Source: Alphaproteobacteria bacterium (GTDB taxonomy: Bacteria > Pseudomonadota > Alphaproteobacteria > SP197). Taken from it: a stretch of 64,000 bases of DNA. Both the position numbers and the translations under genes were made by a program. How positions within the stretch are numbered: position 1 is the stretch's first letter; each line of letters begins with the position of its first letter. A model generated the notes under the pieces. That model ran no database searches. It was given only the letters and a program-made list of their open reading frames with translations, and was not told the DNA's origin. This document shows positions 22,374-44,153 of the stretch, piece after piece. The stretch spans positions 1,376,001-1,440,000 of the forward strand of contig OZ245842.1 of the NCBI GenBank assembly GCA_965228895.1, given 5' to 3'.

Positions 22374-24080
22374 CTAAGCCACCCACTCGCTGACCGGCGC
22401 GTTGGCCTCGTCAAGCGGCTGACAGGTGACATCGACCAGTGACGGACCGCGATGCGCGATCGCTTCTTTCAGCGTGCCGCGTAGCGCGCGCGGGTCTTCG
22501 ACCGACCAGGCCTTCAGGCCGAAACCCTCGGCGACACGGGCGTGATCGGTGCGGCTGAAGCTGGTGGCGAAAAAGCGGGCGTCATAGCGGTGCCGTTGCC
22601 CGGCGCGGATCCAGCCATAGGTCGCGTTGGCGACAACCACCAGGGTGACCGGCAGATCGAGCCGTACCATGGTTTCCATTTCGCCCGCCGCCATGCCGAA
22701 GCTGCCATCGCCCATGACCGCCACGCACGGCACGTCGGGCCGCGCTGTTTGCGCGCCGATGATGGCCGGCAGCGCATAACCCAGCGCGCCGTGGGCGCGG
22801 TTCGAGATCAGGTGCCGGCCCGCGCGCGGCAGGGTGTAGTAGGCCGAGAAGTAAGGGCAGGGTGTGCCTGGGTCGACGACGACGACACCGTCATCGGGCA
22901 TGACGGCGCGCAGATCGGCGACGAGGCGTTCCGGCCTGATCGGCGTTGCGTCCGCACCGGCCAGCATGTCGAAGGCCGCAAATTTCGCACGCTTTGCTTC
23001 CGCGACGATGGCCTGCGCGCCGGTCTCGACGGCCGGTCCCGCGAGCTCGACCAGGAGTGCCTCCAGGATCAGTCTGACATCGCCGACGATCGCGGCGTCC
23101 GGCTCATAGGTTGCGCCGATCACCGCCGGGTCGATATCGATCTGAACGATCTTGGCTTTGCCAGCGGCCGGGTACTGCCACCGTTCCGTGGTTACCGAAC
23201 CGGCGCGGCAGGTGACGAAGACCACGACGTCGGCCCGTTCGACAACCGCGCGGGTCTCCGGCGTGCCGCCGTTGGAGCCGACGACGCCCAGCGCCAACGG
23301 ATGAGTCTCCGCGATGGCGCCCTGGCCGGTGATGGTGGTCGCGACCGGCGCATCAAGACGTTCGGCAAGCGATTGCAGCACGTCTTCCGCGCCTGATGTC
23401 ACGACGCCGCCGCCGCAGATGAAAATCGGCATCGTGGCGTCGGCCAGCAGGTCGGCGGTACGCGCGATGGCGCGCAGGTCGCCCATCGGCCGTTCCGCCG
23501 GCACCATGCCAAACGCTGGGTCACCCGTGACATCGCCATCATCGACGGGGTCGCGCTGCACGTCGAAGGGCAGACCCAGGTGCACGGCACCCGGTTTGCC
23601 GCATGTCGCTTCCTTAAAGGCGCGACACAGGGTCGCGGGTATGTCGGACGCGCGATCGATGACGTCGTTGTACTTCGTGATCGGTGCGAACAGCGCCTTT
23701 TGATCAAGCTCCGTCAGCGTGAACTTGCCGCGTCCGCTGACCGCGATGTCGGTCGTCATGGCGATCATCGGCACGGACGAATCGTTCGCTTCGGCGATGC
23801 CCGGCAGGATGTACGTCGCGCCGCCGCCGGACGGCCCTTCGCAGATGCCGACCCGGTTGGTCAGGCGCGCGTAGGCGTCCGCCATATAGGCGGCGTGGCG
23901 TTCGTCGCGCGTCAGAATATGCGTGATGCCGTGATCGAGACGCGCCAGCGAGTCGTAGAGCGGCAGGCTGGTGTCGCCGCACAGGCCGAAGACGTGCTGG
24001 ACGCCATGGTGTTGCAGCAGGCGCACGACCGCATCGGCGCCGGTCATCCGGTTATCAAGATCGGGCACGGGCAAACTCAA
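22374..24080 (-). CDS. thiamine-diphosphate-dependent enzyme (acetolactate synthase-like)
   Basis: VFGLCG, TRDERHA (catalytic Glu), GDGSFGM...VVAN ThDP motif; overlaps the upstream stop. Confidence 0.88.
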   Translation of the reverse strand: MSLPVPDLDNRMTGADAVVRLLQHHGVQHVFGLCGDTSLPLYDSLARLDHGITHILTRDERHAAYMADAYARLTNRVGICEGPSGGGATYILPGIAEANDSSVPMIAMTTDIAVSGRGKFTLTELDQKALFAPITKYNDVIDRASDIPATLCRAFKEATCGKPGAVHLGLPFDVQRDPVDDGDVTGDPAFGMVPAERPMGDLRAIARTADLLADATMPIFICGGGVVTSGAEDVLQSLAERLDAPVATTITGQGAIAETHPLALGVVGSNGGTPETRAVVERADVVVFVTCRAGSVTTERWQYPAAGKAKIVQIDIDPAVIGATYEPDAAIVGDVRLILEALLVELAGPAVETGAQAIVAEAKRAKFAAFDMLAGADATPIRPERLVADLRAVMPDDGVVVVDPGTPCPYFSAYYTLPRAGRHLISNRAHGALGYALPAIIGAQTARPDVPCVAVMGDGSFGMAAGEMETMVRLDLPVTLVVVANATYGWIRAGQRHRYDARFFATSFSRTDHARVAEGFGLKAWSVEDPRALRGTLKEAIAHRGPSLVDVTCQPLDEANAPVSEWVA

Positions 24081-25426
24081 ACGGGGGCAAGAACAAGATC
24101 GGCAAGGGTATCCGTATCACCGCTCGACGTGCCGAGCGCGTTGACCGCTTGGTCAACCGCTTCGGCGCGTTCGGCGCCGATGACCGGTGCGGCAAGCGCG
24201 TGGAACTTGTTCTTCATGAACACGTCGTCGAACGGAGCGTCGGGATCGCCGTTGGCGGCGACAAGGTCGGTCGCGAAGCTCTGGCCGTCGCGCAACGTCA
24301 CCTTGGCGCGCGCAAGACGCTCTGCCGGAAAGCGGGCGTTGCAGGCATCGTCTTCGCTGAGCCTAACCACATCGGCAATCCGCGCCACTACCGGGTCGGT
24401 CAGGCCAACGCCGGTAATCTCGGCTGTGCCCAGCGTACCTTTGACCAAGGCTGACGCGACCGGGAAGGGCAGGCTGTATTGCGCCTGCTCCGTGTCGGCG
24501 GGGTGGCGCATGGCAAGGCGGGTCGCCTCATGGAAGGTCGCGACCTCGATCACGTCGATCGTTTCGGCGTCGAACCCATGGCTGCGCTGCAGCTGAAGCG
24601 TCGCCTCGACGGCCGGCTGCGCCCAACGGCAGACCGGATAGGGTTTGACGTACTGGTCGGTCATGTACCAGGTCGCGCCCAGATCGGACCACAGGTGCGC
24701 GAGGTCGTCGGCCTCCGTGGTGATGGCCGGCGCGCCGGTGAAACCGTCGGCTGCCAGATAGGCGGCGGAAACGCCCGCCATCGCGCCCCAGCCGGAGCCG
24801 TCCTTCAACATGGTCGGGTGATCGATACAGCGCATCATCTGGCTACGCGGCCCGTGGTACTCGGCGATGCCCAGAGCGTGGCGCGTCTTCTCGCGGTCGA
24901 GACCCATCAGGCGCGCGCCAAGCGCGGCAATGGCGACGCACGTCCAGGCGCCGGAGGTGTGATAGTCGGGCACGCTGGCGTGAAGCGCGATACCGGCCCG
25001 TGTGCCGATCTCATAACCCAGAACGAAGCAGGTCAAGAACTGACGGTCGTCCATGGCGAGCCCATCGTCGTGATAGGCCAGCAGCGCGGGCAGGACAGCG
25101 ACGCCGATATGACCCTTGGTGTCGCGCATGCCGTCATGGGCGTCGATGGCGTCGATCGTCATGCCGCCGGCCAGCGCCGCGCCGGCCGGGCTCGCCCGCC
25201 GGCCGTCGAACAGGAGCCGGGCCGAGGAGCCGCCGAACATACGGACGGCGTGATCGTGAATGATCCGCGACAGTGGCGTTGTGCGCCCGCTCGCCGAAAC
25301 ACCGATCAGATCGAGCAGGTGGCGCCGCGCGGCATGAACCACGTCATCGGGCAGATCGTCAAAGGTGAGCTCGTGGACGAAGGCCGGAACGTCGAAGGAC
25401 GCTGCCGTTTCAAGTTGGGTCGCCAT
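24077..25426 (-). CDS. MmgE/PrpD family protein
   Basis: DAHDG...GHIG, GYEIG, KPYPVCRWAQ and AQYSLPF motifs. Confidence 0.85.
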   Translation of the reverse strand: MATQLETAASFDVPAFVHELTFDDLPDDVVHAARRHLLDLIGVSASGRTTPLSRIIHDHAVRMFGGSSARLLFDGRRASPAGAALAGGMTIDAIDAHDGMRDTKGHIGVAVLPALLAYHDDGLAMDDRQFLTCFVLGYEIGTRAGIALHASVPDYHTSGAWTCVAIAALGARLMGLDREKTRHALGIAEYHGPRSQMMRCIDHPTMLKDGSGWGAMAGVSAAYLAADGFTGAPAITTEADDLAHLWSDLGATWYMTDQYVKPYPVCRWAQPAVEATLQLQRSHGFDAETIDVIEVATFHEATRLAMRHPADTEQAQYSLPFPVASALVKGTLGTAEITGVGLTDPVVARIADVVRLSEDDACNARFPAERLARAKVTLRDGQSFATDLVAANGDPDAPFDDVFMKNKFHALAAPVIGAERAEAVDQAVNALGTSSGDTDTLADLVLAPV

Positions 25427-25443
25427 GGGCGGGTCGGCCTCCT

Positions 25444-27699
25444 CTATGCGGCGTTGAACACGATATCAAGGCGCTGGATCGATTCGGTTACGGGCAGAAT
25501 AATGCGTCCTTCGGCCGGATCATAGGCCAAGGTGTCTCCCCCTAGCGTTGCGTTGGCGGCTCTCTTGTCGCCAGCAACCGTGATCTCGACCCAGCGATCA
25601 CCGCTTCCGGCGGGGATGAAGACCGAGCAGTCAGTTGCCGTCAGATGCAGGTGGTTCAGTCTGCCGGTCATGTTGGTGGTAAGCGTCAAGCCGTTCTCGG
25701 TTGTTACCGCCAACGTGTCGCCGGTCGCCTCGACTGTCGCGTCGCCGGCAGGCGTCAACATCGGCCCCAGCCGATAGGTCTCGCCGTCGCGCCGCGTCAC
25801 GGTCCAGCCCTGCCACGGGTTGACGTCGGAGAGCTCGGCGGTCGCGACATAGGCCATCAAGGCGCCCCAGGTATAGAAGAGGTCGGTGTCCGGCTGGTCG
25901 TCGGCCTGACCGGATGTGCCATTGAAGTTTTCGCCGCAGATGCGGGCGCGTTCCCAGTTCTCCATGAAGATGCGGTAGCTGGACTCCGCGACCTCGCGCG
26001 CGGCGTCGTCGAGGCCGTAGCGGCGCAGGCCGTAATAGGTCAGGAAGTTCAGCGGCGGCCAGATGCGCCCGCGCCAGTAGACATTGTCGTGGAACGCCGG
26101 GTCGTCGCGGGTCACCGCCGGCAGCATGTGGTCGCCATAGAAGGCGTCGGGGTTCATGAGCCAGCCGTCGACCATCTTCTCGGCCTGCTCGGTCGTCGCC
26201 GCACCGCAGACGAGCGGGAAGAAGCTGGTTGGTGCGATCGAGTCGGTGAACTTGCCGGACCACAGGCGGTTGGCGAAGACCTGCCGGTCATCGTCCCACA
26301 GTTGGTCGCGGATGCGCTCCTTCAGGCCCGTCGTCAGACGTTCCAGACGGTCGGACTCGTCGAGATGGCCCAGCGCACGCGCGATGTGGGCGAGGATCTC
26401 GCCATCCAGCGCGACGAAACTGTTGAGCGCGACGTCCTCGCAATCCAGCGTATGGACGTCCTCCATCAGACGGGCCTCGTCGTGGATCGGCGAGTTGTCC
26501 ATCATGGACTCGTCCTTGGCCGCGAGCTTGGTGCCGCGGTAGAGCCCGGTACCGACCGGCGAGGTGCCGAATTCCAACAGGCCGTTCTTGTTGCCGTCAC
26601 GCTCGCGCCACCACCAATCGTGGTTGCTCTTCAAGACCGGCCAGGCGTCCTCCAAAAAACGCCGGTCGCCGGTTCTCAGATAGTGGCACCAGGTGGTGAA
26701 ACCGACGACGGGCGGCTGCGAGCGGTCGATCCAGCTGTCGTTACCGGTCAGCAGACAGGGCAGGTTGCCAGCCTCGGCAACGCCGTCGAACACGGCTTTT
26801 TGGTTCTCGTGACCGAGATCGGCGTCGAACAGGCTGCCCATCATGCCGTGGTAGACGACATCGTTAAGCCAGACGCCCCAGCCGCCAAACTTCTGGGCGA
26901 CCCAGTTGCGGCTGAGCGAGGTGTACGGCCGGCCGTTGTGGCGATCCCAAACCGTGTTCCAGGCGACGCAGTCGCGCACCGCATCGAGCGCGCCGGCGAA
27001 CTGACCGGTGTGATGTGCTGCCATGGGTAGAGGTTGCGATACCTGCAAGGCTTTGGTCAGCTTGGCGGAGGCTTCCTTGCGGGTTGGCGCGTGGGTCAGC
27101 GCGACCTCGAATTCGGCCATTTCTTCGAGGTTGTAGCGGAGAACGCCGAGCGGCCCGTTGGTGCCGCGTGACGCCAGGTAGAAGTATCCCTTTTCTTCGT
27201 ACTCCTGCTTCAGGTCGTCGAAGCTCCTGTGAAACGTCGCCATCAAGGGAAAGTGCGGGCCGCGCACGACGATGTCGCCGTGACCGGTCCATAGCGCCAT
27301 CTCGGTGGAGTCGGGGTCGTAGGACCAGACGTGTTCGCCGTCATGGGCATGCTCGTCGCGCCAAAGGCAGACCAGAAGCCAGAAACGAAGGCCCCATTCG
27401 CCGAACGCGAGCGTCTTCCAGCCGATCTTGAGAACGTCGTTGTCGTCCTTTGACAAACGCACGGCGATCTTGGTGCCCGCATGCTCGATATCGATGGCGA
27501 TGTCGGTGGCATCGACGGTCCGCGGCCCCAAGGTGACGCCGTTGCGGTGACCGGGCGGCAGTCGCGTGAAGGTGCCGGTGGCATCGGAATAGGCGGCAAG
27601 ACCGACATGGACGCCGGTGGGCAGGTGCACGAGTTCGGCCGGATAGACCGCATCCCACGTGTTCCACGCGCGATGGTCGGGAACGGGCCGGTCGCTCAT
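25444..27699 (-). CDS. (alpha/alpha)6 glycoside hydrolase, GH63/MGH1-trehalase-like
   Basis: RSQPP, ESMMDNSP (general-acid Asp), YWRGRIW and ENF (general-base Glu) as in GH63/GH37. Confidence 0.78.
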   Translation of the reverse strand: MSDRPVPDHRAWNTWDAVYPAELVHLPTGVHVGLAAYSDATGTFTRLPPGHRNGVTLGPRTVDATDIAIDIEHAGTKIAVRLSKDDNDVLKIGWKTLAFGEWGLRFWLLVCLWRDEHAHDGEHVWSYDPDSTEMALWTGHGDIVVRGPHFPLMATFHRSFDDLKQEYEEKGYFYLASRGTNGPLGVLRYNLEEMAEFEVALTHAPTRKEASAKLTKALQVSQPLPMAAHHTGQFAGALDAVRDCVAWNTVWDRHNGRPYTSLSRNWVAQKFGGWGVWLNDVVYHGMMGSLFDADLGHENQKAVFDGVAEAGNLPCLLTGNDSWIDRSQPPVVGFTTWCHYLRTGDRRFLEDAWPVLKSNHDWWWRERDGNKNGLLEFGTSPVGTGLYRGTKLAAKDESMMDNSPIHDEARLMEDVHTLDCEDVALNSFVALDGEILAHIARALGHLDESDRLERLTTGLKERIRDQLWDDDRQVFANRLWSGKFTDSIAPTSFFPLVCGAATTEQAEKMVDGWLMNPDAFYGDHMLPAVTRDDPAFHDNVYWRGRIWPPLNFLTYYGLRRYGLDDAAREVAESSYRIFMENWERARICGENFNGTSGQADDQPDTDLFYTWGALMAYVATAELSDVNPWQGWTVTRRDGETYRLGPMLTPAGDATVEATGDTLAVTTENGLTLTTNMTGRLNHLHLTATDCSVFIPAGSGDRWVEITVAGDKRAANATLGGDTLAYDPAEGRIILPVTESIQRLDIVFNAA

Positions 27700-28301
27700 G
27701 ACACCGTCCAGTTAGCGAGGATCTCATCGGTTGTGCCGATTTCGATCTGGTCTTCGAACCGGCGGTAGACATGATCCATCGTCGCCGCGTGGGACACGGG
27801 ATTGGAGCTGTGCACGGCGTCGGAAGGGATGATGACGCGGTAACCGTAGTCCATCGCATCCATCACGGTAGCGAGGACGCAGACATCGGTCTCGACGCCG
27901 GTACAAATGAGAGTTTGGCAGGACATGTCATCCAACATCGCGCGGAACGCCTCGGTCTTGAAGATGGAATAGGTCGGTTTATCGACGACCAGCGCGGGCG
28001 GCACGAAGTGGACGAGGTCGTCGACGACGTCGATCATTGCGCCATCCATCACCGCCGTCGTCACGCTGGTCCAGCGCTCGTAATAGGCACGCCAGTGGCC
28101 GGTGGCGTCGCCGGGATGTTCAGGGGTCGTGAAGCGCGTGAAGATAGAGCGTGACGGCGCATGCTCGGTCAGGCGCACGATCTGCGGCAGGATGTCGGCA
28201 ATCGACGGCGTATGCCAGACGGTCTCGTCGGCGAACAGACGCTGGATATCGATACAGACATGAACGGCATCAGGTCCGATGGGTTTGACCTCTTGCCTCA
28301 T
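27696..28301 (-). CDS. cysteine hydrolase (isochorismatase/nicotinamidase family)
   Basis: IDIQ, DKPTYS, GVETDVCV (Asp-Lys-Cys triad). Confidence 0.85.
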   Translation of the reverse strand: MRQEVKPIGPDAVHVCIDIQRLFADETVWHTPSIADILPQIVRLTEHAPSRSIFTRFTTPEHPGDATGHWRAYYERWTSVTTAVMDGAMIDVVDDLVHFVPPALVVDKPTYSIFKTEAFRAMLDDMSCQTLICTGVETDVCVLATVMDAMDYGYRVIIPSDAVHSSNPVSHAATMDHVYRRFEDQIEIGTTDEILANWTVS

Positions 28302-29353
28302 TCAACGACCACCGTGTGATCGGGCGACCAGGTCAGGCTGACGGTCTCGCCTGGTTGGAACAGGCTGGTTTCGCGGTTTTGCTGGAAGACGCGGAACTCC
28401 TGCGCACCGGCTTCGACCAGATAGGTGACGCTGCTGCCGGAATAGACGGCCTGGCGTACGGTGCCGGTCAGCGCGTTCATGGCGCCGGGCGCCGGATCGC
28501 CGGCGCTGACATGGAACTTCTCGGGCCTAACAGCAAGCGTCACCCCGGCGCCTGCTGCCGGCAGGGCGCCGCTCGTGCGAATGGTGCCGAACGGCGTTTC
28601 GCCGACCGCGCCGTCGCCGGCGCTCTTGCCTTCGATGAAGTTCGCATCGCCCAGGAAACTCGCGGCGAAGCGCGTTCGCGGGTGCTCATAGATATCATCG
28701 GGTTCGCCGACCTGGACCAGCTTGCCCTCGTTAATAATCGCGATCCGGTCAGCCAGAGTCAGCGCCTCTTCCTGATCGTGGGTGACGAAGATCGTCGTGA
28801 TGCCGACCTTCTGCTGGATTTGACGCAGTTCGATCTGCATGTCCTGGCGCAGACGTTTGTCGAGCGCGCCAAGGGGTTCGTCGAGCAACAGCACCTTGGG
28901 ATCGGTAACCAAGGCGCGGGCCAACGCGATGCGCTGCTGCTGGCCGCCGGACAATTGACGTGGCTTGCGCTCCTCCATGCCGGCGAGCTGGACTAGTTCC
29001 AGCATTTGGCGCACGCGATCGGCGATCTCGCTCTTGGAGACACCGCGCACCGACAAACCGAACGCGACGTTGTCGAACACCGTCATGTGCGGGAACAATG
29101 CATAGTTCTGGAACACCATGCCGATATTGCGCCGGTGCGCGGGAATATGTTCGACCGACACGCCGTCGATGGTGATCTCGCCACTGTCTTGTTCCACGAA
29201 CCCGGCGATCGCGCGCAGCAGGGTCGTCTTGCCGCTGCCGCTGGGTCCCAGAAGGGCGTAGAACGAGCCGTCGGGGAAGTTCAGTGACACATCGTCAAGC
29301 GCCGCGACGTCGCCATAGAACTTGTTGACGTGTTTCGCTTCGACCGCGCTCAT
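28298..29353 (-). CDS. ABC importer ATP-binding subunit (PotA-like)
   Basis: GPSGSGKT, VFQNYALFPH, LSGGQQQR, C-terminal TOBE-like domain. Confidence 0.92.
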   Translation of the reverse strand: MSAVEAKHVNKFYGDVAALDDVSLNFPDGSFYALLGPSGSGKTTLLRAIAGFVEQDSGEITIDGVSVEHIPAHRRNIGMVFQNYALFPHMTVFDNVAFGLSVRGVSKSEIADRVRQMLELVQLAGMEERKPRQLSGGQQQRIALARALVTDPKVLLLDEPLGALDKRLRQDMQIELRQIQQKVGITTIFVTHDQEEALTLADRIAIINEGKLVQVGEPDDIYEHPRTRFAASFLGDANFIEGKSAGDGAVGETPFGTIRTSGALPAAGAGVTLAVRPEKFHVSAGDPAPGAMNALTGTVRQAVYSGSSVTYLVEAGAQEFRVFQQNRETSLFQPGETVSLTWSPDHTVVVE

Positions 29354-30141
29354 CGTTCACCACCGAAGCGAGAAAAGCGGGCGAACAAGAGAAGCAGGCC
29401 CATCGAGAAAAAGATGACGATGGTCGAAATGGCGTTGACCTCCGGCGTGAAGCCCTTGCGGATCGCCGAATAGATCTCGACGGGCAAGGTCGAGACGCCG
29501 GGCGGCGCAAGAAAATAGGAAATGACGAACTGATCGAACGATACGGCAAACGCGAACAGCGACGCCGCGACGATGCCCGGCGCCATCAAAGGAACGCTTA
29601 CCCGCAGGAACCGTTGAAGCGGTGTCGCGCCCAGGCTGGCCGCGGCCTCTTCCAACTCCGGCCCGAAGCTGGCCAGCCGGGCGCCGACCACGACGATGAC
29701 ATAGGGCAGGGAGAGCGCGACATGACCGAGCAGCATCGCGTGCAGGCCGCGCCCGATACCGGTCCAGAAGAACATGATCAGCATCGACGTGCCGATGATG
29801 AGCCAGGGAATGGTGATCGGTGGAAACAGAAGCAGTTGCAGGATCGTGCGGCCGCGGAACCGGTAGCGGGCAAAGGCAAAGGCCGCCATCGTGCCCAGCG
29901 TCGTCGCAATCACCGTGTTGGCCAGCGCGACCCACAGGCTGTTGAGACCGGCCGTGATCAGCCGGTCGTTGCCGGCGAGCTCGCCATACCATTTGAAGGT
30001 GCCGCGTATCGGCAATTCGTAGAGCACGGATTCGTTGAAGCTCATCAGAGCCAACACAAAAATCGGCAGGTACAGGAAGATCAGCACCAGCACCAGGAAC
30101 GACCGGCCCACCCAGTCCCATGTCCGCGCCGTCACCCTCAT
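29350..30141 (-). CDS. ABC importer permease (PotC-like)
   Basis: FLYLPI..LALMSFN, EEAAASLGA EAA loop, SFD.FVI. Confidence 0.9.
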   Translation of the reverse strand: MRVTARTWDWVGRSFLVLVLIFLYLPIFVLALMSFNESVLYELPIRGTFKWYGELAGNDRLITAGLNSLWVALANTVIATTLGTMAAFAFARYRFRGRTILQLLLFPPITIPWLIIGTSMLIMFFWTGIGRGLHAMLLGHVALSLPYVIVVVGARLASFGPELEEAAASLGATPLQRFLRVSVPLMAPGIVAASLFAFAVSFDQFVISYFLAPPGVSTLPVEIYSAIRKGFTPEVNAISTIVIFFSMGLLLLFARFSRFGGER

Positions 30142-31001: not shown

Positions 31002-31039
31002 GTTCTCGCCGCCCCCTCAGCGCATCAAGAAGAGAAGGG

Positions 31040-31075
31040 GGGAGAGGGCGCAGCCCCTGGGCGCCACCCTCTCCC
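31040..31075 (-). terminator. intercistronic stem-loop after the solute-binding protein gene
   Basis: GGGAGAGGG/CCCTCTCCC arms followed on the minus strand by a pyrimidine run. Confidence 0.55.
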
Positions 31076-31087
31076 TCGTCACCGCCC

Positions 31088-32146
31088 TTACTCGGCGTAG
31101 TAGGCCTTGGTCTCCTGCCACAGCTCCAGGAACTCTTCACGCTTGCCGTCGCTCAGTGGCGCCATGAACTGAAGGTTCTTCGTCGCTTCGGGGTCGCCCA
31201 GAACTTGTCGGTTGAAAGCGTCTTCCGGCAATTGGTTCATCGCAACGCCGTTGGCGGAGGCGGGCGCGCCGACTTCCGTATCCCAACGCACGTAGTGCTC
31301 CGGGCTCACCATGAAATCGATGAACGCATAGGCGCCGTCCGGGTTGGGTGCGTCGGTCGCGATCGACAAACCGTCAAGCCAGCTGATCGCACCTTCCTGC
31401 GGGATCAGAAATCCGATCGGCAGACCGAACGCCTTGGCGCTGCGCGAGGCCGAGCCCGACCAATAGATAGCAACGTCAAACGAGTCGGCGCTGAACTCCT
31501 TGTTCCACTCGTCTTCGGATGACCAGAAAGTCCGAATCTGCGGCTTAAGCTCACGCAGCTTCTCGCGAATAGCGTCCATATCCTGAGGATCGTTCATGTT
31601 CTGACCGGTCGCGAGTGCCGCCAGATAGACGTTCTCCACCGCATCGTCGCGGATGCCGACACGACCGGCATAGGCGGGATCCCAGAGAATATCGATTGTG
31701 TTGCCCGGCTCGACCTCGTCCGTGTCATAGGCGATCGACGTGACGCCCCACGTCCAGGCGATACCATAAAGCTCGCCGTCATAGGTGAACTCGGTCGCGT
31801 CGCGCAGGCCCGGCGACAGATCGGCAAAGTTGCTGATCTTCGAGGAATCCATCGGCTGAATAAGCCCTTCTTCGGCCGCCTGCTGGGTGAACGCGCTGTT
31901 GATCAGCACGACGTCATAGGCACCGGGGCTGGTCCGCAACTTGGTCAGCATCTCCTGTTCGGAGTTGAAGTTGTCGTGGACGACCGTAAAGCCGGTCTGC
32001 TCTTCGAACATCTCGATGGCCCAAGCTTCGTCGGTGCCATAACCCTGCCAGTTGAGAACACGGACCTCCTGCGCCATGGCGCCGGCGCCGGCCAGGGTTG
32101 CCCCGGCAAACGCGGCGGCGGCAAGCAGGTTTTTCAAACGTGCCAT
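31088..32146 (-). CDS. ABC importer solute-binding protein (PotD/PotF-like)
   Basis: Signal peptide MARLKNLLAAAAF..., LNWQGY, WSG, PQEGA..W.D; GGAGGAG RBS before 32146. Confidence 0.9.
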   Translation of the reverse strand: MARLKNLLAAAAFAGATLAGAGAMAQEVRVLNWQGYGTDEAWAIEMFEEQTGFTVVHDNFNSEQEMLTKLRTSPGAYDVVLINSAFTQQAAEEGLIQPMDSSKISNFADLSPGLRDATEFTYDGELYGIAWTWGVTSIAYDTDEVEPGNTIDILWDPAYAGRVGIRDDAVENVYLAALATGQNMNDPQDMDAIREKLRELKPQIRTFWSSEDEWNKEFSADSFDVAIYWSGSASRSAKAFGLPIGFLIPQEGAISWLDGLSIATDAPNPDGAYAFIDFMVSPEHYVRWDTEVGAPASANGVAMNQLPEDAFNRQVLGDPEATKNLQFMAPLSDGKREEFLELWQETKAYYAE

Positions 32147-32167
32147 GCGACACTCCTCCCATAGTGA

Positions 32168-32267
32168 AGCCGGCACTGCCGCCGGCCAGAACATTGGCTG
32201 ATACACCGAAACCACGAGTGTCTTTCCCGGTCGATCGCTCAACCGGGTCGCATCGCGTTTTCGGTGC
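32168..32267 (-). ncRNA. candidate structured 5' leader RNA of the ABC/glycosidase operon
   Basis: Minus strand: a 15-bp outer stem with one A.G mismatch and a 9-bp inner stem capped by a GCGA (GNRA) loop. G.U pairs work only on this strand. A second GCCGGC hairpin precedes the RBS. Confidence 0.4.
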
Positions 32268-32409
32268 CTGACAGGACGGTTACATGGCGGTTTCAGCGAG
32301 TCAACGCGATGGCGCGGCAAGTTCGTCCGAGATGTTCATCGGGAATGCCTTGACCCCTGTCCCGCATGCCGGAATGCTCCACGCCGATGACCGCAGGAAA
32401 CCCACCAAC

Positions 32410-33252
32410 GTGAGTCTCTATTTGTGCCCGACGAGCCTGGACGAAGCGCTCGACGCGCTGTCGGACCGCCCGATGACGGTGTTGGCCGGCGGCACCGATG
32501 TGTATCCCGCCCGGGTCGGCCGCCCGTTTGACGAAGATGTCCTGGATATTTCCCGCGTCCGCGGCCTTCGCGGCATCGAGGATAGAGGCGATCACTGGCT
32601 GATTGGCGCCACGACAACCTGGACCGACGTGCTGAAAGCGGATCTGCCGCCCCTGTTCGACGGCCTAAAGCTGGCGGCGCGCGAGGTCGGCGGCGTGCAG
32701 ATCCAGAACGCCGGGACAATCGCCGGCAATCTCTGCAACGCCTCGCCGGCTGCCGATGGTGTGCCCGCGCTTATGAGCCTGGACGCTGAGGTGGAGATCA
32801 GCGGCAAGGACGGCGTTGTGACGGCAGGCCTTGCCGACTTCATCACAGGCAACCGGCAGACGACGCTTCGCGCCGATCAACTGGTGACCGGCGTGCGCGT
32901 GCCGAAACCAGCGGCCGACTGGGTGCGCGGTCATTTTCTGAAGCTTGGCGCACGACGTTATCTCGTCATCTCCATCGTCATGGCGGCCGGCGTGATCGAG
33001 GTTGAGGACGAGACAGTGTGCCATGCGCGGATCGCGGTCGGGTCCTGCTCTGCGGTCGCCCAGCGCCTGAAGGATCTGGAGGCCGCGCTGATCGGCTGCC
33101 ATGTCGATGGCGATCTTGGCCATGCGGTCACCGACGAGCATCTTGCCGGTCTGGCGCCGATTGACGATGTCAGAGCGAGCGCAGACTACCGGCGCCATGC
33201 CGCTTTGACGCTGGTCCGCCGTCTGCTGAACGACCTGGGCGCAACGGCGTGA
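32410..33252 (+). CDS. molybdenum hydroxylase FAD-binding subunit (NdhF/CoxM-like)
   Basis: LAGGTD, QIQNAGTIAGNLCNASPAAD, PIDDVRASADYR; GTG at 32410 preferred over 32284. Confidence 0.88.
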   Translation: MSLYLCPTSLDEALDALSDRPMTVLAGGTDVYPARVGRPFDEDVLDISRVRGLRGIEDRGDHWLIGATTTWTDVLKADLPPLFDGLKLAAREVGGVQIQNAGTIAGNLCNASPAADGVPALMSLDAEVEISGKDGVVTAGLADFITGNRQTTLRADQLVTGVRVPKPAADWVRGHFLKLGARRYLVISIVMAAGVIEVEDETVCHARIAVGSCSAVAQRLKDLEAALIGCHVDGDLGHAVTDEHLAGLAPIDDVRASADYRRHAALTLVRRLLNDLGATA

Positions 33253-35975
33253 GCGCATCAACCACATTCACCGTTAACGGCCGTACGGTCGATGTGGACG
33301 CCGTACGGCAAGCACGGCTGGCCGATGTGCTGCGCGACGACCTCGGTCTGACAGGTACCAAGATCGGCTGTAACGCCGGTGACTGCGGCGCCTGTACCGT
33401 GCTGCTTGATGGTGACCAGGTTTGCGCCTGCATGGTGCCGCTGGCCCAGGCCGAGGGACGCGATGTCACGACGGTCGAGGGGCTGGCGGGCGATGACCTG
33501 ACGGCGCTTCAGAACGCGTTCCAACGCCACGGCGCGGCCCAATGCGGCATCTGTACGCCTGGTATGCTGATGGCGGCGACATCGCTGCTCGAGTCGGTGG
33601 CCAAGCCGACAGGCGAACAGGTCCAGGATGCGCTTGGTGGCGTGTTGTGTCGTTGTACCGGCTACCAGAAGATCGTCGAAGCCGTTCTGGATGTCGCCAC
33701 AACCGGTGCGCCGGTTCGCCCGGATGCCGGTCATGCGGTCGGCGCGCGCCTCGCGAAGATCGATGGGCTGCCGAAGCTGACCGGCGATGAGCGCTATGGC
33801 GCTGATGCCGTGCCGCCGGATGCCTTGTGGCTGCGCGTGCTGCGGTCGCCCCATCCAGCGGCGCATTTTGAGATCGGCGATATCGATGGATTTCTCTCGT
33901 CGCACCCCGGCATCGACCGGGTTCTGACATCGGCCGATGTGCCGTTTAACGGCTATGGCATTTATCCGGATATCAAGGACCAGCCGGTGTTGGCCGAGGG
34001 CCAAGCGCGTTATCGCGGCGAGGCCGTCGTCGCCGTGGTCGGTGATCGTGATGCCGTCGCGTTGCTTGATTTGGACGACATTCCGGTCAGCTTCACGCCA
34101 ATCGACCCGGTGATCGGGCTCGATGCCGCCATGGCCGACGATGCACCGCCGGTTCAGGCGAACCGTGACAACAATCTTCTTGTCTCCGGTGGCGTCCGAT
34201 CGGGCAACGTCGGCAAGGCGCTGGACGAAAGCGACATCACAGCCGATGGCGTGTTCGAGGTAGCGTTTGTCGAGCATGCCTATATCGAGCCCGAAGCCGG
34301 CTGGGCGCGCCGGGTTGGCGATCGGATCGAAGTTCACGTTTCCACCCAAACGCCCTACATGGACCGTGATGAAGTCGCCAACATCATGCGGATTCCAGGC
34401 GACCAAGTCCGCATCGTGCCGACCGCGTGCGGCGGCGGCTTCGGCGGCAAGCTGGATCAGGGGGTGCAGCCCTTGATTGCGCTTGCCGCCTGGGTCACCG
34501 AACGCCCCGTGGCATGCGTGTGGACACGGCCGGAAAGCATGGCAGCCAGCACCAAGCGCCATCCTTCCCGCATCACCACGCGGTTCGGCTGCGACCGGTT
34601 CGGCCGCATGACCGCCGCCGAGATGTTCGCCGAATTCAACACTGGCGCCTATGCGTCATGGGGCCCGACCGTATCGGGAAGGGTGCCCATCCACGGCATG
34701 GGTCCCTATCGCGTGCCCCATGTCAGGACGCGGGGCCAGGCTTGGTTCGCCAACGAACCGCCCGCGGGCGCGTTTCGCGGCTTTGGCGTGCCGCAGGCGG
34801 CCATCGCCCACGAGACGATGATGGATGATCTTGCGCTTCAGGTTGGCATCGACCGGCTGGAGTTCCGCCTGATGAACGCGCTCGCCAAGGGCGACCGCAC
34901 GGCGACCGGTCAGTTGCTGGAGGCGAGCACGGGGCTGTCGGCCTGCCTGGAGGCGCTGACCCAACCCTGGAAGGACGCGCTGGCCCAGGCCGAAACAAGA
35001 AACGCCGGCGATCCGGTGACGCGCCGCGGTGTCGGCGTCGGCTGCATGTGGTACGGCATCGGCAACACCTCCATGACCAACCCGTCGACCATGCGCATCG
35101 GTCTGAGCGCCGATGGCCGCGTCACGTTCTATAACGGCGCGGCCGACATCGGGCAGGGGTCGAGCACAATCTTGACCCAGATTGCAGCCGACGCACTGGG
35201 TCTTCCCGTCGGCAGTCTCGACGTGATCGTCGGTGACACCGACCGTACCGCCGATGCCGGCAAGAGCTCGGCAAGCCGCCAGACATTCGTCTCCGGCAAG
35301 GCGGCGGAACTGGCCGGGCTTGACCTGCGAAGCCAAATCCTGCGGCTGGTCAACGCGGGCGACGACGCGCAACTATCGCTCGACGGCGCGGTCTTAAACG
35401 TCGTGGATGGCGACGCCGAACATGTGCCCGATCTTGCCGGTTTGCCGGCGGACGCCAACGGCGACGTGCTGGTTGGCGAAGGGACCTTCGACCCGCCGGC
35501 GACCGCACTGGACGAGAACGGCCAAGGCTCGCCCTACGCGACTTACGCCTTTGCCGCACAGATGGCGGTCGTCGATGTTGATACGGAGCTCGGCACCGTC
35601 AAGGTCAAACGTATGGTCGCGGCGCACGACGTCGGCCGCGCGATCAACCCGATCCAGGTCGAAGGCCAGATCCATGGCGGCATCGCCCAGGGACTGGGTC
35701 TGGCGCTGATGGAAGAATATGTGCCCGGCGTGACCGAAAACCTGCACGACTATCTGATCCCGACCTTTGGCGACATGCCGGAGATTCGCGTTATCATCAT
35801 CGAGGATGAAGAGCCTTTGGGGCCGTACGGCGCCAAGGGTGTTGGCGAGCCCGGCCTGGTGCCGACCGCGCCGGCGATCCTGGGTGCGATCCGCCATGCG
35901 ACGGGTGCGCGCATCACCCGGGTTCCCGCGCTGCCCCATCGGGTTCTCGAAGCCATGGAGGCCTCTGGTGACTGA
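33249..35975 (+). CDS. fused 2x[2Fe-2S] / molybdopterin subunit, probable nicotinate dehydrogenase (NdhSLM-like)
   Basis: GCNAGDCGACTV, QCGICTPG...CRC, GGGFGGK, FRGFGVPQ, AKGVGEP; directly upstream of hnr. Confidence 0.85.
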   Translation: MSASTTFTVNGRTVDVDAVRQARLADVLRDDLGLTGTKIGCNAGDCGACTVLLDGDQVCACMVPLAQAEGRDVTTVEGLAGDDLTALQNAFQRHGAAQCGICTPGMLMAATSLLESVAKPTGEQVQDALGGVLCRCTGYQKIVEAVLDVATTGAPVRPDAGHAVGARLAKIDGLPKLTGDERYGADAVPPDALWLRVLRSPHPAAHFEIGDIDGFLSSHPGIDRVLTSADVPFNGYGIYPDIKDQPVLAEGQARYRGEAVVAVVGDRDAVALLDLDDIPVSFTPIDPVIGLDAAMADDAPPVQANRDNNLLVSGGVRSGNVGKALDESDITADGVFEVAFVEHAYIEPEAGWARRVGDRIEVHVSTQTPYMDRDEVANIMRIPGDQVRIVPTACGGGFGGKLDQGVQPLIALAAWVTERPVACVWTRPESMAASTKRHPSRITTRFGCDRFGRMTAAEMFAEFNTGAYASWGPTVSGRVPIHGMGPYRVPHVRTRGQAWFANEPPAGAFRGFGVPQAAIAHETMMDDLALQVGIDRLEFRLMNALAKGDRTATGQLLEASTGLSACLEALTQPWKDALAQAETRNAGDPVTRRGVGVGCMWYGIGNTSMTNPSTMRIGLSADGRVTFYNGAADIGQGSSTILTQIAADALGLPVGSLDVIVGDTDRTADAGKSSASRQTFVSGKAAELAGLDLRSQILRLVNAGDDAQLSLDGAVLNVVDGDAEHVPDLAGLPADANGDVLVGEGTFDPPATALDENGQGSPYATYAFAAQMAVVDVDTELGTVKVKRMVAAHDVGRAINPIQVEGQIHGGIAQGLGLALMEEYVPGVTENLHDYLIPTFGDMPEIRVIIIEDEEPLGPYGAKGVGEPGLVPTAPAILGAIRHATGARITRVPALPHRVLEAMEASGD

Positions 35976-37425
35976 CACCGCCGACCAGGAAGCCGGCATC
36001 GTCAAGTGCGACGCGTGTCCGGTGTTGTGCCGGATCCGTGCCGGCAAGACCGGCGCATGCGACCGCTATGCCAACGCGGATGGCCGCCTGGTGCGCGTTG
36101 ATCCTCTGGTTGTCGCCCAGCGCGCCGACAAGCTGGTGCCGTTTTTGGAGGGGTCGGCGAACTGGGACGGTGCCGTCGTCACGGGCAAGGACAGTTTCGT
36201 CACCGGTATTGGCTCCGGCACCACCTATCCCGACTACAAACCCGCGCCCTTCATCGTTGCGAGCGAGGCTGACGGCGTCGACATGGTCACCGTCGTCTCC
36301 GAGGGCATCTTCAGCTACTGCGGGATCAAGGTGAAGATCGACACCGACCGGTTCTTGGGCCCCGAGCAATCCAACGTGTTGTGTGAGGGCGAGCCGATCG
36401 GTCACGTCACGACCGCCGAATACGGTTCGCAGATGTTGTCGCTGGGCGGCGTGCGGCATCTGACCGGCGGCTCGAAGAGAGAAGGCAACACGACTTGCCA
36501 GGCGATGCTCGATCTGTGCAGCGGCAAGCCGGTCGATGTTGTTGTGGACGGCGGGTCCGACGTGACGATCCAGGCGGGCCAGCCGCCGGTGGTGAACGGC
36601 CAGCGCGAGGAGCGCATGCGGGTTGGTTGCGGCAGCGCGGCCATGGGCATGTTCGCCAAGCAGTGGTTCGAGCACGCCGACGAAGTAATCGTTGTCGACG
36701 ACCACATCACCGGCGTCTTCACCGAACACTATGCCGGGACCTATCTGGACGTGCCGCCGTCCGGCATTCGTGTCCGAGGGCGCAAGTCGACACCCGGGCG
36801 CTATTTCCAGGTCGCCGAGCCGGGTCTTGGTTGGGGCGGCACGGACGTGACCGACCCTCTGGAGATCATCGAGAAGATCGATGCCAAGAAGGCTTGGCCG
36901 GGCCTGAAGCTTTTGATGGTCTCGACCACCGGCGAAGACGCCGGCTGGTATGTCCTGGATGACGATCTCGTTCCACAGCCTGCCGACATGCCGGCACCGG
37001 TCAATCAGGTTGTCGAGCGGATTGCCGAAAACTGTGAGCCCGCTCTGTGCACGGTCCTTTTCATGGCCGGTGCCGGCGGCTCGTTGCGGGCTGGCGTGAC
37101 GGAAAACCCTGTGCGATTGACCCGTTCGGTTCGCGAATCCCTGACCCGTGTCACCTCGGGTGGCGCGCCGGTCTATGTCTGGCCCGGTGGCGGAATCACG
37201 TTCATGGTCGACGTCACGCGCCTGCCGGAAAACGCTTTCGGCTATGTCCCGACCCCCGCCCTGGTCGCGCCCATCGAGTTTACCCTGCGGCTGGACGACT
37301 ATCTGGCCTTGGGTGGCCATGGCGACCATGTGCGCCGGCTTGGCGACGTGGTCAGCGATGTTCATCCGGCAGCACACAGGTGGCATGACGACAATCCCTG
37401 GCCGGTGCGGGTCCAGCAGGCATGA
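35968..37425 (+). CDS. hnr: 6-hydroxynicotinate reductase
   Basis: CDACPVLC.I..GKTGACDRYAN, TGIGSGTTYPDYKPAPFIV, MRVGCGSA, STPGRYF; GGAGG RBS and GTG at 35968. Confidence 0.82.
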   Translation: MTDTADQEAGIVKCDACPVLCRIRAGKTGACDRYANADGRLVRVDPLVVAQRADKLVPFLEGSANWDGAVVTGKDSFVTGIGSGTTYPDYKPAPFIVASEADGVDMVTVVSEGIFSYCGIKVKIDTDRFLGPEQSNVLCEGEPIGHVTTAEYGSQMLSLGGVRHLTGGSKREGNTTCQAMLDLCSGKPVDVVVDGGSDVTIQAGQPPVVNGQREERMRVGCGSAAMGMFAKQWFEHADEVIVVDDHITGVFTEHYAGTYLDVPPSGIRVRGRKSTPGRYFQVAEPGLGWGGTDVTDPLEIIEKIDAKKAWPGLKLLMVSTTGEDAGWYVLDDDLVPQPADMPAPVNQVVERIAENCEPALCTVLFMAGAGGSLRAGVTENPVRLTRSVRESLTRVTSGGAPVYVWPGGGITFMVDVTRLPENAFGYVPTPALVAPIEFTLRLDDYLALGGHGDHVRRLGDVVSDVHPAAHRWHDDNPWPVRVQQA

Positions 37426-38282
37426 CCGCACAGATCGCGCGCCTGGCCGGCGATCGGCTGCATCTGCATCACGGTCCCATCGATATCGTATTGAAGGCGT
37501 GGGGCGAGGCGGATGACGTGGCGCGCGCTTATGACCAGGCGATGCAACGTTTCCAAACGATCCTCGACGACCTCGTTCAGGAACTGCCGCAGCTTCGCCA
37601 GTCCCATGGTGAGACGCATCCTCTCTTTCAGGGCCGCGTTGCGCGGCGCATGGCGACCGCCACGCGCCCGTTTGCCGATCGATTCGTGACGCCGATGGCG
37701 GCTGTCGCCGGCGCCGTGGCAGACGAGGTCTTGGAAGCCATGACCGACGGCACCACCATCCGACGCGCCTATGTCAACAACGGCGGCGATATTGCCCTGT
37801 ATCTGTCACCGGGCGAAACATTGAAAGCCGGCATCGTCGACAACCAGGACGCCCCCTTTCTGGACGCCGATGTCACGATTGAGTCGGCGATGCCGGTGCG
37901 CGGCATGGCGACCTCGGGCTGGCGCGGGCGTTCCCAATCTCTGGGCATTGCTGACGCGGTGACGGTCTTGGCGGCGGATGCCGCGACGGCCGATGTCGCG
38001 GCGACGCTGATCGCTAATGCCGTCGATACCGACCATCCAACCATCGAGCGGGCCCCCGCGTCGTCGCTGCGCGACGACACCGATCTGGGCGAGCGGCTTG
38101 TGACCGTCTCGGTCGGAGCGTTGGACGAACCAGCCATCGTCGCCGCGATGAACGCCGGTGTCGATCTCGCCAAGACCTACCGTGCGCGCGGCCTCATCCA
38201 CAGCGCCTATCTGGCGCTGCAGAACCGTCGCCGGGTTGTCGCATGCAACAGCTATGTTTTGCCCGAGGGAGCGAGTGCATGA
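37422..38282 (+). CDS. UPF0280 / ApbE-like protein
   Basis: HHGPID, TPMAAVAGAVAD, VNNGGDIA, ATSGWRGRS.SLGIADAVTV. Confidence 0.85.
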   Translation: MTAQIARLAGDRLHLHHGPIDIVLKAWGEADDVARAYDQAMQRFQTILDDLVQELPQLRQSHGETHPLFQGRVARRMATATRPFADRFVTPMAAVAGAVADEVLEAMTDGTTIRRAYVNNGGDIALYLSPGETLKAGIVDNQDAPFLDADVTIESAMPVRGMATSGWRGRSQSLGIADAVTVLAADAATADVAATLIANAVDTDHPTIERAPASSLRDDTDLGERLVTVSVGALDEPAIVAAMNAGVDLAKTYRARGLIHSAYLALQNRRRVVACNSYVLPEGASA

Positions 38283-38866
38283 GTCTTGAGGTTGATGTCC
38301 GCAAAATCGTCACGGTGGTTGACGAGATCCATCACGAGTTCGGTCCGCCGCCGGAGGGACCCTATAAGCGCGGCGCGATCATGATGGTGATCGCCAATCC
38401 CTATGCCGGCGAGTATGTCGAGGACATCACGCCCATGATGGAGGCGCTGAAACCCCTGGGTCTGGATATGTCCCACCGGCTGATCGCCGCGCTGGGCGTC
38501 AAGCCGGACAACATCCAGGCCTATGGCAAGGGCGCGATTGTCGGCGAGGCCGGCGAACTGGAGCACGGTGCGCTGTGGCACGTACCCGGCGGCTACGGAA
38601 TGCGCGAGGTGCTGGGCGGCGCCAAGGCGATCGTGCCGTCCGCCAAAAAGGTCGGCGGCATGGGCACGCGGTTGGATATCCCGATCGGCCACATCGATGC
38701 CGCCTATGTGCGCAGCCATTTCGATGCCATGGAAATCGGTCTGCCCGACGCGCCCCGGCGTGACGAGATCATCTACGGCCTGGTCATGACGACGGGTGGT
38801 CGCATCCACGCGCGTGTCGGCGGTCTGCGTCACGAGGATATCGGCGGCGAAGACGGCCTGCGGTGA
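38279..38866 (+). CDS. amino-acid-synthesis family protein (DUF1185)
   Basis: ANPYAG, YGKGAIVG.AGELEHGA, AYVRSHFD, DAPR.DEI; ATGA coupling. Confidence 0.8.
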   Translation: MSLEVDVRKIVTVVDEIHHEFGPPPEGPYKRGAIMMVIANPYAGEYVEDITPMMEALKPLGLDMSHRLIAALGVKPDNIQAYGKGAIVGEAGELEHGALWHVPGGYGMREVLGGAKAIVPSAKKVGGMGTRLDIPIGHIDAAYVRSHFDAMEIGLPDAPRRDEIIYGLVMTTGGRIHARVGGLRHEDIGGEDGLR

Positions 38867-38896
38867 ACGCGGCGAAATTGCTGTAGGCTCGTCGGT

Positions 38897-41160: not shown

Positions 41161-41212
41161 CGTTCGTCTCCCGGCGGGTGTCTTTCACCGCATCAGGGCA
41201 GCATAGCACCTG

Positions 41213-42019: not shown

Positions 42020-42033
42020 CGTCTTATCCCTTG

Positions 42034-43203: not shown

Positions 43204-43211
43204 GGCGGCTT

Positions 43212-44021: not shown

Positions 44022-44153
44022 GGTCTTGTCACCGTTGCGATTCGCGGCAAGTGTGGTCTATGTACGTCAGCAAGATAATGCCGCCACGCGGTGGTCTGGC
44101 TCCCTGGCATCAGCAGAAAATTGCGCATGATCGGCGACCTCTTTGACTATGTG

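Follow-up and report, generated by a model that had tools for sequence, protein, structure and literature searches.

A Pot-type importer, glycosidase and cysteine hydrolase module linked to nicotinate catabolism genes: a candidate system for the use of pyridine N-glycosides in Alphaproteobacteria

Nicotinate degradation is textbook biochemistry, and the route through 6-hydroxynicotinate reductase (Hnr) is known from Eubacterium barkeri and Azorhizobium caulinodans, while conjugated forms of vitamin B3 arise as ribosides from turnover of nicotinamide adenine dinucleotide (NAD) and as plant N-glycosides. In Proteobacteria, an ndh-hnr-ena cluster encodes the pathway's three initial steps, an ATP-binding cassette (ABC) transporter and a pair of conserved, uncharacterized proteins, and one member of the Bradyrhizobiaceae cluster is 42% identical to E. 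barkeri Hnr (PMC3511419). The nic cluster of Pseudomonas comprises nicAB, nicCDEFTP and nicXR (PMC10269826). In this report we focus on a 64,000-nucleotide stretch of an alphaproteobacterial genome (hereafter the window: GenBank assembly GCA_965228895.1, contig OZ245842.1, positions 1,376,001 to 1,440,000, forward strand; GTDB lineage Alphaproteobacteria, SP197), in which an operon for a Pot-type importer, a cysteine hydrolase and a glycosidase diverges from an ndh-hnr cassette. The two arms are very probably linked in function, and we consider it likely, with due reserve, that they make up one system for breaking down a glycosylated pyridine carboxamide or carboxylate that is cationic—nicotinamide riboside (NR) or nicotinate riboside (NaR) being the likeliest candidates. 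A literature search, in which coverage of subscription journals was thin, found no described pathway of this kind, nor any description of bacterial use of conjugated vitamin B3 as a growth substrate. The genes concerned are listed below in window coordinates.

22374-24080, minus strand: thiamine diphosphate (ThDP)-dependent enzyme, acetolactate-synthase-like, with three TPP_enzyme Pfam domains; genus-specific addition
24077-25426, minus strand: MmgE/PrpD-family protein (PrpD), PF03972 and PF19305; genus-specific addition
25444-27699, minus strand: GH63/MGH1-like (alpha/alpha)6 glycosidase (GH), 751 amino acids, PF22422; candidate deglycosylating enzyme
27696-28301, minus strand: isochorismatase-family cysteine hydrolase (IsoC), PF00857; candidate amidase, translationally coupled to GH
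28298-29353, minus strand: PotA-type ABC ATPase, TIGR01187 at 386 bits against a cut-off of 355.6
29350-30141, minus strand: PotC-like permease, from family scans
30138-31001, minus strand: PotB-like permease, from family scans
31088-32146, minus strand: PotD-like substrate-binding protein (SBP), with an ATG start, a signal-peptide-like N-terminus and a conserved acidic and aromatic pocket
32147-32409, no strand: divergent intergenic region of 263 bp between the SBP and NdhF genes
32410-33252, plus strand: NdhF-like FAD subunit of a xanthine-dehydrogenase-family hydroxylase, PF00941 and PF03450
33249-35975, plus strand: fused 2Fe-2S and molybdopterin subunit (NdhS/L-like, NdhSL), with Fer2, Fer2_2, Ald_Xan_dh_C and MoCoBD_1/2 domains
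35968-37425, plus strand: Hnr-like protein, named from the database annotation of its homologues (6-hydroxynicotinate reductase)
37422-38282, plus strand: UPF0280 protein, NF003322 at 373 bits against a cut-off of 290; constant Hnr partner
38279-38866, plus strand: AA_synth/DUF1185 protein, PF06684 at E 3e-71 and PDB 3byq at E 5.5e-56; constant Hnr partner
38897-40366, plus strand: AMP nucleosidase, NF006142 at 712 bits, 30 nt past the cassette

Open reading frame (ORF) calls and family scans agree on both strands with the gene list and coordinates given in a preliminary description of this DNA. Five of the seven minus-strand junctions are 4-nt overlaps, and by ORF coordinates the remaining pair leave 17 and 86 nt between genes, which bears out the tight coupling described there. 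GH, IsoC, Hnr and UPF0280 each occur once in the window's genome (G000); an SBP paralogue with 55% identity lies elsewhere in it, outside the window (G000 3357884-3358876). Whether the AMP nucleosidase is a member of the system is uncertain.

A conserved module joined to two nicotinate pathways

The genes for SBP, PotB, PotC, PotA, IsoC and GH are a conserved six-gene unit. Our surveys covered 26 GH loci from contigs taken as one genome per species, the best 80 of 269 metagenome relatives, most of them on short contigs, and 10 plasmid loci sampled from 63 records with a full-length GH homologue (about 39% identity). IsoC is present at 25 of the 26 genome loci and lies immediately upstream of GH, with a median gap of 4.5 bp, at 86 of the 99 loci that have at least 700 bp of upstream sequence; eight of the 13 loci without IsoC directly before GH are on rhizobial plasmids, where it follows the ABC genes. 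The SBP-PotBCA-IsoC-GH core is found across Alphaproteobacteria, Limnochordales, Binatia, SAR324 and one Candidatus Cybelea metagenome-assembled genome, and the IsoC-GH pair extends to Actinomycetota, where it persists even at loci for which no homologues of the ABC genes turned up nearby. Local variants exist. In genus g3 (which includes genomes G004 and G008) a gene for a GAF-domain adenylate/guanylate cyclase is inserted between IsoC and GH, and G008 has a second inserted gene, for a TPR-cyclase (insertions at L026 8691-9968, L029 8654-9931 and L044 2840-4684). In genome G006 the GH gene (contig C71 1676-3818; L009 and L052) is represented by three matches with in-frame TGA stops and is, to judge from its sequence, probably a pseudogene; the upstream ABC and IsoC genes look intact. 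Two small recurrent ORFs (124 and 227 amino acids) downstream of GH in one metagenome clade have no PDB match. A class-V aminotransferase gene upstream of the SBP gene at three loci was considered as a clue to function and set aside, being SufS beside SufBD and hence a housekeeping neighbour.

This unit is recurrently and physically linked to genes of two nicotinate pathways, the first of which is the ndh-hnr type. Linkage takes four different layouts. The divergent arrangement is seen in the window, whose genus is g1, and in G001. The SBP gene of G004 and G008 has the Hnr module upstream of it, on its own strand, with the gene for a 405-amino-acid amidohydrolase (87-91% conserved) between the two. 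NdhF and NdhSL genes, with or without Hnr, follow GH on the same strand at seven of the 33 metagenome loci with at least 3 kb of downstream sequence (eight of 43 with at least 2 kb), and also at L091, which has only 1.1 kb of downstream sequence. Locus L075 is the most complete, with fourteen genes on one strand separated by mostly small gaps—MarR-SBP-PotB-PotC-PotA-IsoC-GH-RbsK-NdhF-NdhSL-Hnr-UPF0280 and two AA_synth genes—followed by a divergent amidohydrolase gene whose product is 80% identical to that of g3. Finally, on a Pleomorphomonas plasmid, genes for Hnr, AA_synth, HyuAB-like proteins and NicR lie a few kilobases from PotD-GH. The module thus adjoins ndh-hnr genes in the window's genus, in a second genus with another layout, at seven of 33 metagenome loci and on this plasmid. 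This is the neighbourhood association that had been predicted, and the two arms do not co-occur rarely: by our rough reckoning, chance would place a 6-kb cassette present in one copy less than 10 kb from any one gene in well under 1% of genomes of 4-5 Mb. Among the 26 genome loci, ndh-hnr genes showed up at the edges of L020 and L026 and nowhere else. In the order to which the window belongs (33 genomes, all of one family) GH was found in 13 genomes and Hnr in eight, all eight of which have GH; these genomes are kin, so this co-occurrence amounts to only a few independent events.

A tree of GH sequences indicates that the linkage was not inherited from a single event, since at least six changes of state are needed to account for it: 21 rows in at least five clades have pyridine genes alongside, against 12 negatives with long flanks. 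The tree was built with FastTree only, has 107 rows and several long branches, and omits L084 and L109 as copies of L026. Because flanks were short, 74 of the 107 rows were left unscored, and as positives were scored at any flank length the share of positives is inflated; L026 and L029 were set as positive, their Hnr genes lying just past the 10-kb flank.

The second pathway is the aerobic nic route. At eight of the 10 sampled plasmid loci, from five Rhizobium species, Shinella, Pararhizobium and Mesorhizobium, the module lies inside nic-like clusters, with the genes for GH, SBP, two permeases, the ATPase and the cysteine hydrolase between NicA/NicB-like genes and MarR and GH3 genes (gene order is rearranged in Mesorhizobium) and with NicC-, NicD-, NicE-, NicF- and NicX-like genes alongside. 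On sequence evidence these are real nic genes: the NicC-like monooxygenase matches 6-hydroxynicotinate 3-monooxygenase (PDB 5eow) at E 7e-179 and 598 bits, the next family reaching 190, the 344-amino-acid NicX-like protein matches 2,5-dihydroxypyridine 5,6-dioxygenase (PDB 7cn3) at E 1.7e-96, and the NicB-like large molybdenum (Mo) subunit has Mo-binding and cytochrome c domains. The six module proteins of the window are 39-60% identical to their rhizobial counterparts. On a Rhizobium lusitanum plasmid the module is accompanied by MarR and GH3, and the 14 kb upstream are free of nic genes; a search of the window's genome gave a NicC-like match of 29% identity only and no NicX-like match. An 895-amino-acid 'carbohydrate-binding protein' without a Pfam or NCBIfam match adjoins GH in the rhizobial nic clusters (L053 9278-11965; homologues at L055-L060 and L062), encoded before GH at seven loci and after it in Mesorhizobium (L056).

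Comparison with G002, a genome of the window's genus that is 97% complete, defines the boundary between the arms. G002 has SBP-PotB-PotC-PotA-IsoC-GH, then a 1.9-kb insert, then PrpD-ThDP, with 84-98% protein identity. In a DNA alignment, window positions 32407-38877—exactly NdhF to AA_synth—correspond to about 59 bp in G002, in which the SBP gene faces the AMP nucleosidase gene directly, and a search of the whole G002 genome found no Hnr. Because G002 lacks precisely this stretch, the ndh-hnr genes behave as a separable cassette. The intergenic length of 263 bp given earlier is correct with a GTG start for NdhF at 32410, the point at which homology to relatives begins and which coincides with the boundary of the G002 indel. 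The idea that this region is a co-evolved control unit shared by a divergon did not survive, however: 260 bp of it are 86% conserved in G002, up to a ribosome-binding-like AGGAA before the NdhF start, in a genome where ndh-hnr is missing, so the region is not specific to the two arms. A consensus scan of the region found no sigma-70 site and no terminator, and an inverted-repeat search found two short palindromes only. The suggestion that PrpD and the ThDP enzyme process ring-opened acids fared no better; their genes are confined to genus g1, occur at none of the 80 metagenome loci and are retained in G002 in the absence of Hnr, and for this last reason belong with the GH operon rather than with Hnr. 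The ThDP enzyme reached no model cut-off in an NCBIfam scan. The G002 insert, between GH and PrpD (L013 16202-17947), encodes a metallo-beta-lactamase-fold protein and a 201-amino-acid protein without a family match. The layout over 24788-41500 is the same in X2, a close strain represented by one 31.7-kb contig with 200 differences; this does not count as independent support.

Candidate functions of the proteins

GH belongs to a family of (alpha/alpha)6 glycosidases, with matches to PF22422 (E 2.5e-44, 152.7 bits, cut-off 27) and PF03200 (43 bits, cut-off 22.4), while no NCBIfam cut-off is reached (93 bits against 625). Its alignment to YgjK structures (E 2e-16) is partial, covering residues 321-380 and 421-614. 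In YgjK the catalytic pair is D501 and E727; GH E590 aligns to chain position 727 and is invariant in both of our alignments (A1 and A2), and the position of the catalytic acid falls outside the aligned stretches, with E397 and D401 in an invariant KDESxMDNSP stretch as candidates. GH has no signal peptide, is thus predicted to be cytoplasmic, and is 39% identical over its full length to the glycosidase of rhizobial nic clusters. Its gene context suggests a substrate other than alpha-glucosyl or alpha-mannosyl O-glycosides.

IsoC has the Asp-Lys-Cys triad of its superfamily, with D18 and C141 conserved in 35 of 35 family sequences and K108 in 34 of 35; C141 aligns to a residue that is Cys in PDB 4l07 and Ala in PDB 4l08. 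A conserved aromatic-rich insert carries W70, Y73, Y74 and W77, and all named NCBIfam models score far under their cut-offs.

SBP matches E. coli PotD structures at E 5e-42. Of the ligand residues of PotD, the positions equivalent to W34, Y37, D168, W229, W255 and D257 do not vary among the 46 distinct orthologues, whereas T35 is replaced by Q (44 of 46) and E36, S83 and Y293 by G, N and A (46 of 46 each), a pattern that fits a cationic, non-polyamine ligand. Scores fall below the curated cut-offs for PotD (153 against 582 bits), PotB (197 against 348) and PotC (206 against 326), so that on sequence the importer is a Pot-type relative and not a PotABCD equivalog; the expectation of a Pot-type importer for a cationic solute agrees with the acidic and aromatic PotD pocket kept in SBP.

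The identification of the plus-strand enzymes as nicotinate dehydrogenase and Hnr stands in part. Together NdhF and NdhSL carry the Pfam domains for FAD, two [2Fe-2S] clusters and a Mo cofactor, as expected, but this Mo enzyme reaches the curated NCBIfam cut-off of no named xanthine-dehydrogenase-family member (top match Se-dependent xanthine dehydrogenase, 585 bits against 830), and its putative specificity for nicotinate is suggested by linkage to Hnr alone. The Hnr-like protein itself has no match in Pfam, NCBIfam or PDB, and thus no curated model; it has at least 8000 homologues at E 1e-10 or better, many of them named 6-hydroxynicotinate reductase, which is the NCBI and JGI name of homologues with 60-77% identity and that of RefSeq plasmid genes whose products are 64-68% identical to it. 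UPF0280 follows Hnr in all relatives checked, and its sole solved relative is weak (PDB 2o34, a hypothetical protein, E 1.9e-7); a part in Hnr maturation is speculation.

On the cassette side of the window there is no enamidase-type amidohydrolase, MarR or transporter gene beside ndh and hnr, and tblastn against the whole genome at E 1e-8 found no match to the Hnr-linked amidohydrolase or to either MarR protein. Across genomes, Hnr modules pair with one of two candidate ring-opening partners: an amidohydrolase of about 400 amino acids (L026 1902-3119 in G004, and L143 4196-5386 in Sulfitobacter, 67% identical to each other) or HyuAB, an ATP-dependent hydantoinase/oxoprolinase-like pair (L046 7929-11940 in G010, and L054 5702-9537 in Pleomorphomonas). 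The window's genome has the HyuAB type only, far from the cassette. The HyuAB genes come after the Hnr module in genus g2 and in Pleomorphomonas, and the orthologues in the window's genome, at about 3.67 Mb, are 76% and 85% identical to the Hnr-linked HyuAB of g2. The window's own HyuAB (45263-49371), at 32-37% identity to the g2 pair, was rejected as the ring-opening step in view of these orthologues.

A clue to the sugar comes from a ribokinase-like PfkB gene that follows GH within 1.5 kb on the same strand at 38 of the 57 metagenome loci that offer 900 bp or more of downstream sequence, and that six of the 26 genome loci have as well. The top NCBIfam model was ribokinase TIGR02152 for each of the four proteins tested, one of which exceeds the curated cut-off, and Atlas names for the L075 copy agree with ribokinase. 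At L033, L127 and L133, genes for a RihC-like nucleoside hydrolase and a ribokinase-like protein precede the SBP gene. The ribokinase-like neighbour favours a riboside (NR or NaR), so that of the two kinds of substrate named in the preliminary description, glucoside and riboside, the latter has gained and the former is less favoured.

A proposed route and its alternatives

From sequence and gene context we infer every biochemical step, and the substrate, of the following route. The PotD-like SBP and PotBCA would import a pyridinium glycoside; in the cytoplasm IsoC would strip the carboxamide nitrogen and, before or after this, the GH63-like enzyme would cut the sugar-pyridine bond, the freed sugar being phosphorylated in many relatives by the ribokinase-like protein encoded next to GH. 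NdhF and NdhSL, as a molybdenum hydroxylase, would convert nicotinate to 6-hydroxynicotinate, which Hnr—with UPF0280 and AA_synth as constant partners—would reduce, and the ring would be opened by products of genes outside the window, for which the HyuAB orthologues at about 3.67 Mb are candidates. Taken together, a positive charge, an amide group, ribose and the ring of nicotinate point to nicotinamide riboside. An N-glycoside of nicotinamide or nicotinate is in our judgement slightly favoured as the substrate, and a riboside in particular is a tentative choice, somewhat short of an even chance. Other N-glycosides of nicotinate may serve in plant-associated relatives: plants make nicotinate N-glucoside, N-pentoside and N-rhamnoside (PMC6776627), and such compounds may explain the additional GH3 and 895-amino-acid proteins of the rhizobial clusters. 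More doubtful, though not negligible, is that GH represents a new N-glycosidase of the GH63/GH37 (alpha/alpha)6 clan that cleaves the pyridinium-ribosyl bond and that, with a deamidase and a PotD-derived SBP, constitutes a widespread upper pathway. If so, IsoC would be a deamidase lacking a PncA-like metal site, SBP would recognise the pyridinium cation, and the module would plug into whichever nicotinate pathway the host has, making B3 nucleosides a source of carbon and nitrogen or of NAD precursors. The core of the earlier reading, a glycosidase and amidase importer feeding nicotinate catabolism, is thus strengthened by the linkage and shorn of the shared control region and of the roles given to PrpD and the ThDP enzyme.

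Several observations weigh against this reading. Related genomes are not independent samples, and most of the metagenome contigs are short. The arms can be parted: G002 keeps the complete minus-strand operon without the ndh-hnr cassette or Hnr anywhere in its genome, no Hnr match was found in five of the 13 GH genomes of the order or in six of 10 GH genomes outside it, and 12 loci with long flanks have no pyridine genes nearby. Only one of the 10 Hnr-negative GH genomes tested has a NicX-like gene; as the other nine do not, the module must also work without either nicotinate pathway, and in genomes without a nicotinate route its role may be NAD-precursor salvage. On the enzymatic side, to our knowledge GH63, GH37 and MGH enzymes are known only as alpha-gluco- and alpha-manno-O-glycosidases, and we know of no N-ribosidase in the clan. 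As an N-ribosidase GH would moreover be redundant in those clusters that encode a RihC-like nucleoside hydrolase (L033, L127 and L133, with weaker matches at L100 and L132). The view of IsoC as a canonical nicotinamidase could not be upheld: PncA has a metal-binding Asp/His site, and IsoC has the triad but, when the family is aligned, H171 as the only other conserved His; the PncA model NF008623 matches it very weakly (26 bits, cut-off 174) and just over residues 119-167, and the solved protein closest to it, a hydrolase of the isochorismatase family, scores 42 bits. Lastly, the window's operon has neither a ribokinase nor a MarR gene, its genome has no match to the enamidase-like amidohydrolase, and beside the ndh-hnr-ena cluster its cassette is a minimal version, without that amidohydrolase, MarR and a Liv-type ABC system and with one AA_synth gene.

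These points lend themselves to other explanations. Most simply, the arms might be unrelated neighbours brought together by the tendency of catabolic genes to pile up, the module importing and hydrolysing either an ordinary O-glycoside, for instance a compatible solute of the glucosyl- or mannosyl-glycerate or -glyceramide type, or a conjugate of an amino sugar. The family matches of GH (MGH1-like, trehalase and YgjK) would suit this, as would the clean absence of the cassette beside the intact operon of G002, the 12 loci without pyridine genes and the lack of a NicX-like gene in nine of 10 Hnr-negative genomes. Yet mere neighbours would hardly recur side by side in five or more layouts, and beside nicotinate pathways of two unrelated kinds, at a frequency (seven of 33 loci) well beyond the rough chance level, and neither a ribokinase-like neighbour, ill-suited to a hexosyl-glycerate, nor an SBP that retains the PotD cation pocket is what such solutes would call for; we therefore regard this explanation as improbable. 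Slightly more credible, but still unlikely, is that the module takes up free nicotinamide or nicotinate, or salvages NAD precursors, with the ABC system importing the base or nucleoside, IsoC as a nicotinamidase, GH and the kinase acting on a separate sugar or on ribose alone, and clustering due to a shared nicotinate pool rather than to growth on the glycoside. It would account for the module in genomes where neither nicotinate pathway was found, and ABC transporters do occur in other nicotinate loci, in Sulfitobacter, Bordetella (PMC10269826) and Bradyrhizobiaceae (PMC3511419). Against it stand the pairing of GH with IsoC, which is more constant than any other feature (86 of 99 loci) and which persists in Actinomycetota without nearby ABC homologues, the place of a cytoplasmic GH within the operon, and the different, Liv-type ABC system of canonical Hnr clusters.

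The ring is the remaining point at issue, since the substrate might be a riboside or other glycoside of a different N-heterocycle on which the Ndh-like and Hnr-like enzymes act. The Mo enzyme falls below curated cut-offs, Hnr has no curated model and owes its name to annotation transfer, and the window's genome has no match to an enamidase-like partner, all of which leaves some room for such a substrate. We nevertheless give it little credence: in rhizobia the module lies beside very strong matches to solved 6-hydroxynicotinate 3-monooxygenase and 2,5-dihydroxypyridine dioxygenase, and a Bradyrhizobiaceae strain with an ndh-hnr-type cluster degrades nicotinate and 6-hydroxynicotinate (PMC3511419).

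Significance and comparison with known systems

Beyond the AMP nucleosidase lies a second catabolic island (40363-53341) with genes for EutA/arylmalonate-decarboxylase-like, SDR, GcvT-like, PhyH and KARI-like proteins, hydantoinase A/B, an isopropylmalate-dehydrogenase-like protein, an MFS transporter and a gamma-butyrobetaine-hydroxylase-like dioxygenase, which from its gene content looks like one for betaine- or carnitine-type metabolism; G002 shares its seven genes from EutA-like to hydantoinase A, the extent compared. As for the module, its portability is suggested by the repeated joining of its six genes to two unrelated nicotinate pathways, in bacteria of soil, water and root nodules, and it explains an insert that has gone unannotated in the nic clusters of many symbiosis-related Rhizobium plasmids. 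It probably represents an upper pathway, so far undescribed, that leads into known nicotinate routes, possibly with a new GH63-like reaction, and it supplies candidates for the genes of a pyridinium-glycoside binding protein, of a deamidase and of a glycosidase with what might be a new reaction type in the GH63 clan. If the proposal is right, soil, aquatic and root-nodule bacteria would use B3 nucleosides, and rhizobia plant nicotinate N-glycosides as well.

Setting the locus against its closest described relatives brings out what is shared and what is distinct. The ndh-hnr-ena type of cluster, as seen on a Sulfitobacter plasmid, has the same core as the window's cassette, together with an amidohydrolase, MarR, another AA_synth, a Rieske oxygenase and an ABC system of the Liv type; what the window's cassette has beside it is a Pot-type importer with a glycosidase and a cysteine hydrolase. 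The Pseudomonas putida KT2440 nic cluster resembles the module-bearing rhizobial plasmids, which have NicA-F- and NicX-like genes and MarR regulators, and differs from the window, which has none of the nic genes; the descriptions of nic clusters that we consulted make no mention of an insert of GH, ABC and IsoC genes. The importer has the four-gene architecture of the PotABCD spermidine/putrescine system, a PotA above its cut-off and part of the ligand pocket, and departs from it in the four replaced positions of SBP and in a PotD score below the cut-off. IsoC shares its fold family and triad with isochorismatase-superfamily amidases—PncA, maleamate amidase (NicF/Ami) and N-carbamoylsarcosine amidase—and stands apart as a distinct subfamily by its aromatic-rich insert and the lone conserved His outside the triad, H171. 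Finally, GH shares with YgjK and MGH1-like hydrolases its sequence family and a C-terminal Glu aligned to the catalytic one, and is of about the size of YgjK, with an N-terminal extension; it aligns only in part, is cytoplasmic and is paired with a cysteine hydrolase and a PotD-type importer, and its substrate is probably not a neutral or anionic O-glucoside.

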